Shown here: piece after piece, positions 7,728 to 8,802 of the stretch
Layout of the letters: every line of letters starts with the position of its first letter
Position numbering within the stretch: the first letter of the stretch is position 1
Assembly: GCA_031394045.1 (NCBI GenBank)
Contig: JANMWN010000280.1
Location: forward strand, 1-50,620
DNA length: 50,620 nucleotides
Source: Sporichthyaceae bacterium
GTDB lineage: Bacteria; Actinomycetota; Actinomycetes; Prado026
Direction: 5' to 3'
The notes under the pieces: model-generated
What the model saw: only the letters and a program-made list of their open reading frames with translations
Told to the model about the DNA's origin: nothing
Databases searched by the model: none
Position numbers and translations under genes: made by a program

Positions 7728-7736
7728 CTCAGCCGC

Positions 7737-7849
7737 CTGACCCAGATGGCACGCTAACCAGCGCGCCACGGGGCTTCCTTGCTCGTAACCACGCTTGGCC
7801 AGCCGGATTCAGGTTCTGCAGTCGGCCGTTAACGTGCCACTCGGGTCAG
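7737..7849. repeat. Imperfect 22-bp inverted repeat (REP/MITE-like element, 113 bp)
   Basis: Left arm CTGACCCAGATGGCACGCTAAC (7737-7758) vs reverse complement of right arm 7828-7849, CTGACCCGAGTGGCACGTTAAC: 18/22 identical; right arm contains the stop codon of the minus-strand DUF559 gene. Confidence 0.75.
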
Positions 7850-8715
7850 CCAGCCGCTGACAGCAGTCGCTTCACCGTCGCTATCACGTAGTCAGGACGG
7901 TTGAGGACATCGCTCCAGGAGAAGCGCACGACCCGGAAGCCTGCGCAGAGCAAAGCGTTGTGGCGCCTTCGATCGGCCTGGAACGAGGCGGCGTCTCGGT
8001 GGTAGGCGAAGCCGTCGGTCTCGACTACCAGCCGCTCGTCGCGAAAGAGGAAGTCGACACGAGCCACGAACGCCCCGTCGTAGATGCCGACTTGGAGCTC
8101 GGGCTCGAGACCGTGGGCAAGGAACAGGAGCCTGGTCACCGACTCCAGCGCGGACTCGGACCGATGGTCGACGAAGCCCGCAGCCCGTCGTGCCCGGGCG
8201 GAGCCGGGTCCGACGAGCACCTCTGTTGCCCTACCCAGCGCGTCCTCGGTCACAGCGCCAGCGCGCGCAGTCGAGTCGAGCAGCACCACGGCGTCGCGCA
8301 GCGGGAGCAGTCGAGCGCAGTCGATGACGGTGCGGAGCAGATCGGTGGTCGGTTGCCCGGACAAGTAAGTGATCTCGTGGGCAGGCACCGCGCCGCGGTG
8401 GATCCGGAGCCCTGCGGGAGGTGTTCGCCGTCGATGAGGCGAGATCACGTGAAGTCCTGGCGGTGCCATGAGGTCAAGGCCTAGCAGGCTTGCCGCGGTC
8501 GTGTGCGAGAGGGTCCCGAAGCGTGCGGCCAGTTCCAGCTCGGTGGACTCGTCTGGAGGAGGGCCGTAGAGGCCGGTGGCCAGCCGTCGGAGGAGTCCGG
8601 CGCGAGCGGCTCGGGTAATGCTCGATCGGCTGACGCCGCCACCCACGAGCTCTGAGGTCGAGACGACCTCAGAGGGGAAGCCCGCACCTGAGAGGGCTGC
8701 CTGCAATGACTCCAC
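7846..8715 (-). CDS. AbiEi-like N-terminal domain + DUF559 (Vsr-like, restriction-endonuclease fold) protein, ~289 aa
   Basis: N-terminal [56 protein letters not shown]-terminal ARVDFLF...LVVETDG..YH...DRRR.N.L...GFRVVRF. Start placed at GTG 8715 because the longer ORF overlaps metK. Confidence 0.85.
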
Positions 8716-8764
8716 GTCGCAGGATGCGGGCGAACTGCCGCTCTGCGTCCTGGTCAACACTGAT

Positions 8765-8802
8765 CTGTGGACGGCGGGTAGGCCAGGGAGCGGCTGTGGA
8801 CG
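8765..8802 (-). promoter_or_regulatory. Two CGTCCACAG direct-repeat boxes (DnaA-box-like) upstream of the DUF559 gene
   Basis: CTGTGGACG at 8765-8773 and 8794-8802, 29 bp apart; function inferred only. Confidence 0.4.

Follow-up and report, generated by a model that had tools for sequence, protein, structure and literature searches.

What does a solitary gene that joins an AbiEi-type antitoxin fold to a nuclease do when no toxin gene stands beside it? The question is raised by a 50,620-nt contig of a Sporichthyaceae bacterium (GenBank assembly GCA_031394045.1, contig JANMWN010000280.1), referred to below as the window, in which a single minus-strand open reading frame (ORF; positions 7846 to 8715), the nuclease gene, lies between coaBC and metK. 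A preliminary description of the locus had noted an imperfect inverted repeat at the 3′ end of the gene and paired boxes upstream of it and had proposed a self-contained mobile unit whose nuclease recognizes or spreads palindromes, by analogy with REPIN-RAYT systems. From the analysis of the window, of its source genome (G000, an assembly of 371 contigs), and of homologous loci, we arrive at an explanation that we consider just as likely to hold as to fail: the gene encodes an autoregulated, vertically inherited nuclease acting on its own cognate repeats, similar to REPIN-RAYT with a different enzyme. The more general statement, that every unit of this gene family sits within palindromic or inverted repeats of a family of its own, stands for us at the same even balance.

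The product of the nuclease gene, 289 amino acids translated from a GTG start codon at 8715, consists of two parts. Residues ~202 to 289 (7849 to 8112, minus strand) make up a DUF559/Vsr-like PD-(D/E)XK nuclease domain. The Pfam DUF559 model matches residues 220 to 284 with 36.9 bits (cutoff, 20.6; E = 3.7e-9), a profile search matched structure 3hrl at 4.4e-6 across the D...ExDG segment, and in an 18-sequence alignment E232, D234, and G235 are invariant and D221 is nearly so. Residues 1 to ~200 (8116 to 8715, minus strand) comprise a winged helix (~14 to 57) and a domain resembling the AbiEi C-terminal one. Profile matches to both DUF559 and AbiEi_4 had been anticipated; the DUF559 match passes its cutoff, whereas AbiEi_4 (20.0; cutoff, 25) stays below its own, as does AbiEi_3_N (19.6; cutoff, 26), and the AbiEi assignment comes from the PADLOC AbiEi models (residues 18 to 172, E = 3.6e-17) and from the fold. 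A structure model built from the 18-sequence alignment (mean predicted local distance difference test score, 89.8) was compared with known structures using Foldseek. Its first ~200 residues matched the Streptococcus agalactiae AbiEi antitoxin (6y8q_A; E = 5.9e-5, 200 columns), and the N-terminal part also matched Mycobacterium tuberculosis Rv2827c (1zel_B; E = 2.1e-4). The last ~98 residues matched the catalytic domain of the homing endonuclease I-Bth0305I (3r3p; TM-score of 0.78, root mean square deviation of 2.8), as well as NGO0050 (3hrl; TM-score of 0.70) and Vsr (1cw0). By alignment and model, the gene encodes a whole AbiEi-type DNA-binding part fused to a Vsr-like nuclease with conserved catalytic-type residues; the ORF, the DUF559 score, the PADLOC matches, and the fold bear out its preliminary description as a solo AbiEi-DUF559 gene between coaBC and metK.

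Single-gene units of this kind form a very large family, mostly from actinobacteria, of which the nuclease gene is a member. Among representatives clustered at 50% identity, 21,315 relatives were found at E ≤0.001 and 7,156 at ≤1e-10; the best 150 relatives of the 289–amino acid protein are mostly ~290 to 310 residues long, with some shorter fragments.

The association of this family with repeats is seen in the flanks of the homologous genes. We collected 75 homologue loci, all hit by a family hidden Markov model, with 12 distant ones contributed by a single-protein scan; 71 loci had a stop codon and both flanks. For each locus, the best local match between 450 nt upstream and 350 nt downstream of the gene was ranked against 300 mismatched upstream/downstream pairs. 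The two flanks matched above the 95th percentile at 49 of the 71 loci and above the 99th at 36 (L022, from the unpublished genome G017, is one of the 71 and lies outside the 49). When 330 random G000 genes of 200 to 450 residues were treated in the same way, 14 exceeded the 95th percentile and 1 exceeded the 99th, and none of the four canonical AbiEi-AbiEii operons of G000 did so (each with a long upstream ORF in the AbiEi position, whose family was assumed from that position). The shared units are specific to their loci: none of 612 non-syntenic pairs among the 36 strongest loci exceeded 30 bits. An inverted repeat was present in a flank at 39 of the 71 loci above the 95th percentile of random genome windows and at 21 above the 99th, a comparison that is lenient since these windows are mostly coding DNA. 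The window shares with at least 16 of the 49 loci a downstream unit that starts no more than 8 nt from where the stop codon begins. The idea that homologues carry gene-specific flanking palindromes is therefore upheld by the shared units at 49 of 71 loci versus 14 of 330 controls.

Each repeat family goes with one gene. In G000, three families were found with one nuclease gene each. A paralogue on contig C289 has a ~55-nt palindrome on both sides, in inverted orientation, with 13 further loci in the genome, and another on C221 has a third palindrome family on both sides, with about 20 further loci. Likewise, the unit that flanks one paralogue in genome G016 recurs at 11 further loci, none of which lies beside the other eight paralogues. 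In an Actinomyces genome, a 132-nt inverted-repeat unit stands on both sides of the gene in copies that are 98.5% identical; its arms occur at five other places, and full copies recur in two related Actinomyces genomes. Across four Actinomyces species, the two flanking copies within a genome are 98.5, 96, 90, and 78% identical, and the whole loci of the first and third species are ~90% identical. Positional orthologues of the C289 gene (67% protein identity) have dissimilar units, each with its two flanks alike. Judged from these sequences, the flanking copies evolve in concert: the unit itself drifts, yet some process keeps the two copies beside a gene alike. When two Actinomyces loci (L076 and L078) were compared, homology stopped at the outer end of the downstream repeat (~1994), and the break in synteny coincides with the edge of the element.

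In the window, the repeat is a 111-nt inverted-repeat element (7738 to 7848), one of six full copies in G000 of what we call family A, with arms reading TGAC[CT]C..TGGCACGCTAAC. The inverted-repeat scan gave arms of 27 nt (7732 to 7758 and 7828 to 7854; 78% complementary, 69 nt apart), and alignment of the copies sets 21-nt arms at 7738 to 7758 and 7828 to 7848 (plus strand) with an interior of ~70 nt. The outer TCA of the right arm (7846 to 7848) is the minus-strand TGA stop codon of the nuclease gene, just as had been described. CAGCCGC is indeed found on both sides of the element (7730 to 7736 and 7851 to 7857), but its interpretation as a target-site duplication had to be given up, because the other 16 aligned family-A copies show no consistent flanking duplication and the right-hand CAGCCGC encodes the C-terminal A-A-G, also present in the C289 paralogue, which has no family-A repeat. 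An intrinsic bidirectional terminator was also considered and rejected: a scan for U-tract terminators found no site at 7738 to 7848, and the stems are 21 nt long around an interior of ~70 nt. Folded as DNA, the element has a z-score of −1.65, with 11 of 200 shuffles folding equally well.

Family A is dispersed. The 12-mer arm core has eight exact occurrences in G000, compared to 0.37 expected, and the paired-arm pattern gives six matches per strand, compared to none for a reversed-pattern control. The G000 elements, 110 to 112 nt long with one of 101 nt, lie on contigs C337, C250, C39, C342, C8, and C353, and partial arms are found on C321 and C370; with at least six full copies, the hairpin is not single-copy in the source genome. 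Neither a single-copy repeat nor homologues devoid of palindromes, which the preliminary description had named first among the findings that would refute it, was thus observed. We aligned 17 elements from G000, G001, G002, G006, and G009 over their arms. Changes on both sides were seen at 13 of the 21 arm pairs, a covariation score reached by none of 500 shuffles, and 83.8% of cells are paired across the 17 copies. Among the G000 copies, identity is 0.76 in the arms and 0.34, the random level, in the interior. A covariance model of family A (R1) was then used to search genomes, with counts that are lower bounds since 150 first-look candidates were scored per genome (92 to 150 across the genome searches). 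Full elements number at least six in G000, eight in G001, three in G002, three in G006, and one in G009; G005 has a 43-nt partial match, and none was found among the 150 candidates per genome in the other six genomes of the taxonomic family. In G021, which belongs to another family of the class, the sole R1 match in 2.7 Mb has perfect 22-nt arms and lies ~100 nt upstream of a homologue of the nuclease gene. A generic ungapped inverted-repeat scan of G000, which returned 48 mostly chance hits, missed the element in the window with its bulged arms, and the covariance model was used instead.

The other family-A copies are intergenic, with neighbors that include genes for methylmalonyl-CoA mutase, YebC, GNAT, MsrA, acyl-CoA dehydrogenase, and Crp. 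The copy on C39 is near a DUF222 gene (8.7e-41; locus L025, 1350 to 2012), and that on C353 is ~460 nt from a DDE_Tnp_1_4 transposase gene (4.5e-46; locus L028, 3090 to 4574); DUF222 and DDE transposase genes are of types typical of mobile or selfish DNA. The C342 copy lies in a region that is variable in relatives. Contig C103 ends within the left arm of a family-A element, its last ~60 nt repeating the start of C250, and the assembly breaks there. On contig C275 of G002, two family-A elements (7749 to 7860 and 7884 to 7995) are separated by 23 nt with no gene between them; this may be a repeat-gene-repeat arrangement in empty or collapsed form. An unrelated 101-nt element with perfect 20-nt inverted arms (CGACCACAACAGCAGGGAAG...), belonging to none of the three nuclease-linked families, was seen at C87:598-698 of G000. 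Two other readings of the family-A arm were dropped: an end of a coding frame (NTG GCA CGC TAA), as copies occur in unrelated contexts on both strands, and an attC-like or sigma-54–like TGGCAC, as the conserved AAC/GTT is at the inner, not the outer, arm ends.

Upstream of the gene, the box CTGTGGACG (CGTCCACAG on the gene strand) occurs at 8765 to 8773 of the plus strand, 50 to 58 nt before the GTG, and again in the same orientation at 8794 to 8802, 29 nt from the first, so that the two span 50 to 87 nt upstream of the start codon. Both are instances of a C-TGTGGA-C motif. They are the only occurrences of CTGTGGACG in the window; since 26 of 100 shuffles also give two or more, the significance of the pair rests on the homologues. 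TGTGGA/TCCACA is present within 250 nt upstream of the estimated start at 62 of the 71 loci, with at least two boxes at 19. It was found in 4 of the 71 regions downstream and in 166 of 3000 random windows of this length. The paired upstream boxes singled out in the preliminary description are real. Most boxes (61 of 88) lie at −100 to −51, with the consensus C-TGTGGA-C-R-R-C; 49 have one orientation and 36 the other, and pairs are either direct at 17 to 29 nt or convergent at ~18 to 20 nt. This layout would suit operator half-sites better than promoter hexamers. The coaBC-metK orthologues retain the box, and solo repeat copies are mostly without it (2 of 15 carry one). At one locus (L115, G027:C5), the arms of the flanking palindrome contain the box (TGATCCACAG...CTGTGGATCA), and box and repeat arm may share an origin.

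How long has the gene been at this site? The coaBC-metK gap holds an orthologue in 6 of 12 genomes of the taxonomic family, spread over four genera. Orthologues in G001 and G002 (same genus), G003, G006, and G008 lie at 41 to 59% identity and match each other best; metK of these genomes is 88 to 96% identical. Because orthologues fill the same gap in half of the family's genomes, the nuclease gene is not a recent insertion, and its proposed status as a mobile insertion does not hold. Among 29 metK loci surveyed from relatives, the gene lies within the gap at four; G003 has it on a split contig, and two loci are cut by contig ends. Within the same family, coaBC adjoins metK at six further loci, including those of G009 and G011, which belong to the genus of G006; in other families, the two genes are adjacent at 17 loci, 4 of them in unpublished genomes (G017, G025, G034, and G039). 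One acquisition followed by vertical descent and several losses is the simplest reading of the site, and it is compatible with a domesticated, RAYT-like state. A published abstract describes RAYTs as single-copy and vertically inherited, so stable synteny counts against the word “mobile” and not against the RAYT analogy.

Both gene and repeat are vertically inherited at coaBC-metK, and the repeats vary among the orthologous loci. The 3′ repeat occupies the same site in G001 and G002 and is degenerate in G006, and none is found 3′ of the gene in G003 and G008. An additional repeat lies upstream of the gene in G006, and in G008 the only one is upstream. In G002, the stop codons of both convergent genes are within the repeat arms. 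No clean empty site was found at coaBC-metK, where the intergenic regions of G009 and G011 do not align with that of G006, or in 41 genomes of the genus Actinomyces, where the flanking genes are kilobases apart if the cassette is missing. The gene-less coaBC-metK sites of G009 and G011 (L046 and L047) have a TGTGGAC box abutting the metK −10 region (GATAGACT) and an imperfect inverted repeat, which may be the remnant of a lost cassette or may be due to chance.

AbiEi antitoxins autoregulate through paired short repeats in their promoter regions. By the explanation that we favor, the winged helix of the 289–amino acid protein would similarly bind the paired boxes and repress its own promoter. 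The protein would also recognize its cognate repeats, either as duplex or as an extruded hairpin, and nick or cut them, after which host break repair would copy repeats between sites by gene conversion. Such conversion would keep the arms uniform within a genome and the flanking copies alike, and it would seed occasional new copies; at the locus in the window, only the 3′ copy would remain. Both the self-repression at the box and the action of the nuclease on cognate repeats, together with this mechanism, are what we infer from the analysis as a whole. RAYT-type transposition chemistry is excluded because a PD-(D/E)XK nuclease cannot rejoin DNA. What survives of the REPIN-RAYT analogy is the layout, the dispersed repeats, and the one gene per family; recognition and spreading of the repeats by the nuclease remain conditional statements, and the transposition chemistry has to be left out.

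Several observations weigh against the explanation. Because the nuclease is hydrolytic and incapable of strand transfer, spread would have to go through host repair, which is a conjecture, and the unrelated interiors of the family-A copies do not point to any recent duplication of complete elements. The homologue loci are not independent, with 18 positional-orthologue pairs among the 36 strongest. In the window, the repeat is found at the 3′ end only, with no family-A match upstream of the nuclease gene. Beside the fourth paralogue of G000, on C45, only a weak local repeat was seen, and it does not recur elsewhere in the genome. Gene and repeat also come apart in relatives: the gene-bearing G003 yielded no family-A element, although the contig there stops 142 nt upstream; G009 carries a single family-A element but lacks an orthologue; and the repeat of the G008 orthologue is essentially single-copy. 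Across homologues, palindromes and boxes co-occur, as had been expected; co-variation of repeats with proteins gave no signal, with a Spearman coefficient of 0.08 for non-syntenic loci and no unit similarity even in 21 pairs of at least 50% protein identity. As the units of similar proteins show no likeness, a protein-repeat specificity code is not demonstrated by these comparisons. Last, the box rather than the repeat is the family-wide constant, and the winged helix may read only the box.

We weighed the explanation against four others. The main rival regards the cassette, from box and promoter through the ORF to its stop codon, as a homing element whose endonuclease cuts preexisting REP-like palindromes that serve as landing pads. 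Repair would copy the cassette beside or between palindromes, leaving one full palindrome on each side, and the dispersed palindromes would be either independent of the gene or solo scars of recombination between flanking copies. The C-terminal fold is closest to the homing endonuclease I-Bth0305I, the short distance from stop codon to downstream repeat in at least 16 of 49 loci suggests a sharp cassette boundary, and many loci (L076, L016, L012, L095, L097, and L110) have full copies on both sides in direct orientation. Presence of the gene in G006 and its absence from G009 and G011 of the same genus, the two adjacent gene-less elements of G002, and the rarity of the box at solo copies, as scars would have it, fit as well. 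However, a homing cassette would be expected at several copies of its target, and one gene per repeat family, both for the three families of G000 and for the solo loci of G016 (0 of 11 beside other paralogues), argues against it. Moreover, the syntenic orthologues are mutual best hits, one acquisition with losses explains the coaBC-metK site, and no site was found that is cleanly empty and keeps a single palindrome. Homing is in our view improbable, at perhaps the strength of an outside chance that deserves to be kept in mind. An enzyme without any relation to the repeats is a somewhat fainter prospect. It would be an autoregulated orphan (a fused toxin-regulator or a defense or repair nuclease), and the palindromes would act as transcription insulators or terminators or would be generic intergenic repeats that gather where a gene is dispensable and weakly expressed. 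The element does lie between convergent genes, where a bidirectional terminator would be placed, with stop codons in both arms in G002; the other copies are intergenic beside unrelated housekeeping genes; the constant feature of the family is the box; the PADLOC Hhe model has a weak match, confined to the nuclease domain; and the G+C content at third codon positions (GC3) of 0.76 fits weak expression. The lack of a U-tract terminator at 7738 to 7848 and a fold z-score of just −1.65 speak against a terminator, and generic repeats would explain neither the locus-specific matched flanks in 49 of 71 loci (compared to 14 of 330 controls and 0 of 4 AbiE operons) nor the concerted evolution of the flanks nor the position of G021's sole R1 match at a homologue.

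The two remaining alternatives are considerably weaker. If the element were an ordinary miniature inverted-repeat transposable element (MITE) derived from a DDE insertion sequence whose terminal inverted repeats match its own, located beside the gene by chance, then its ~21-nt terminal inverted repeats, its length of ~111 nt, and its dispersed intergenic copies would be accounted for, as would the C353 copy near the transposase gene and the end of C103 inside an arm, since assemblies break at repeats. Yet the 17 copies have no consistent target-site duplication, and no full-length element with family-A ends was found among the arm matches, although insertion sequences may be unassembled in 371 contigs. 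Nor would chance place repeats beside members of this gene family in several families of the class, that of G021 among them, and we regard this alternative as very unlikely. Least probable of all, hardly to be entertained, is a type IV AbiE antitoxin of the canonical kind with its AbiEii partner lost or acting in trans. The protein does have the AbiEi fold and PADLOC AbiEi matches, and G000 has five PF08843 (AbiEii) matches. All five are on other contigs, with none at the locus or elsewhere on its contig, and the neighbors of the gene are coaBC and metK. The absence of a cognate AbiEii is in agreement with the preliminary description, and because none is adjacent, the nuclease gene is not a canonical AbiE antitoxin. 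Furthermore, the four canonical G000 operons have neither the box nor flanking repeats, the fused nuclease retains its conserved acidic residues, and full-length relatives of ~290 to 310 amino acids dominate the 21,315 representative clusters.

The unit was compared with several known systems. Its similarity to AbiE type IV toxin-antitoxin systems (S. agalactiae, 6y8q; Rv2827c, 1zel) consists of the whole AbiEi fold and the paired short repeats in the promoter region, and it differs in having a C-terminal nuclease fusion in place of an AbiEii partner. With REPIN-RAYT systems, as published abstracts describe them, the unit shares a single-copy enzyme gene beside or between its own palindromic repeats with further intergenic copies, several gene-repeat pairs per genome with their own repeat each (three in G000), and long vertical inheritance. 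In contrast to those systems, it combines an AbiEi-type winged helix with a PD-(D/E)XK nuclease instead of an IS200/IS605-type HUH tyrosine transposase; its repeats are low in copy number (6 to about 20), and family-A interiors are unrelated; and a C-TGTGGA-C box stands between the upstream repeat and the gene. Since Pfam, PADLOC, and the fold show AbiEi and DUF559 only, the unit is not a member of the REPIN-RAYT group and resembles it in layout only.

The nuclease fold (3r3p, 3hrl, and 1cw0) and the D...ExDG signature are those of the Vsr/DUF559/EDxHD group that includes I-Bth0305I, and PMC3424549 groups DUF559 with Vsr and an intron homing endonuclease (PD-(D/E)XK clade 58). Unlike Vsr and I-Bth0305I, the nuclease gene neither sits in an intron or intein nor comes with a T:G mismatch context or a nearby cytosine methyltransferase partner; it is fused to an AbiEi module and is associated with repeats. 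MITEs, of which Correia and ERIC-type elements are examples, resemble family A in being dispersed intergenic elements of ~110 nt with ~21-nt terminal inverted repeats that sometimes provide neighboring genes with stop codons; family A differs in that it has no target-site duplication, no matching insertion sequence was found, and interiors are not conserved between copies. The nearest printed hint that inverted repeats cluster at DUF559 genes is a table in PMC9881135, where “DUF559 domain-containing protein” is enriched among predicted targets of programmed inversion (odds ratio of 14.3). There, the class is listed without discussion, the repeats are read as inversion sites, and no dispersed cognate repeats, box, or AbiEi fusion are reported.

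The genes on either side of the nuclease gene are on the plus strand. Convergent with it is coaBC (6525 to 7727; Pfam DFP, 2.6e-62; Flavoprotein, 1.5e-27), and divergent from it is metK (8921 to 10114; Pfam S-adenosylmethionine synthetase N, M, and C domains). A candidate −10 element of the nuclease gene, CATCCT (8721 to 8726, minus strand), is located 5 nt before the GTG by sequence; a scan for consensus promoters at the locus gave no match. Upstream of metK, GGATAGACT (8857 to 8866) is conserved across the loci of the taxonomic family and looks like the metK −10 region. An Rfam scan of 7400 to 9200 returned two chance-level matches (E = 0.2) and no known RNA family, and no S-adenosylmethionine riboswitch was matched in it. 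GC3 is 0.76 in the nuclease gene, compared to 0.90 in coaBC and 0.94 in metK, in line with the by-eye impression that the gene has more A/T at third codon positions than its neighbors. The absence of GTAC from 7728 to 8920 was confirmed as well: GTAC is missing from 7079 to 9102, the longest GTAC-free stretch seen, which spans the nuclease gene and the element. In the window overall, there are 230 GTAC sites, compared to 84 expected from dinucleotide-preserving shuffles (104 in the largest shuffle). The gap was ruled out as a trait of the gene family, as the C289 paralogue contains GTAC, and was treated as a local oddity.

No description of AbiEi-DUF559 genes linked to repeats was found in the full-text literature, a search outside of which subscription journals and supplements lie. 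We propose, with a little less than even confidence, that AbiEi-DUF559 proteins, at present annotated as orphan antitoxins or unknowns, are dedicated nucleases of palindromic repeats in Actinomycetota, forming a second, independently evolved partnership of the REPIN-RAYT type in which a hydrolytic Vsr-like nuclease spreads and homogenizes its cognate repeats via host break repair and the gene is kept under AbiEi-style self-repression at a C-TGTGGA-C operator. If so, this would be the first concrete role for one of the largest uncharacterized gene families of Actinomycetota, and it would correct the routine misannotation of its members, which are labeled “AbiEi family antitoxin” although no toxin partner accompanies them. 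A possible explanation would also be at hand of how palindromic intergenic repeats arise and are maintained in high-G+C Gram-positive bacteria, for which the REPIN and RAYT papers found hold no report of RAYTs. The conserved box offers an immediate handle for DNA binding work. The enzymes themselves would be nickases that recognize sequence or structure, with specificities that are built in and diversify, and a partnership between repeat and enzyme could rest on a hydrolytic nuclease and host recombination instead of on a transposase.

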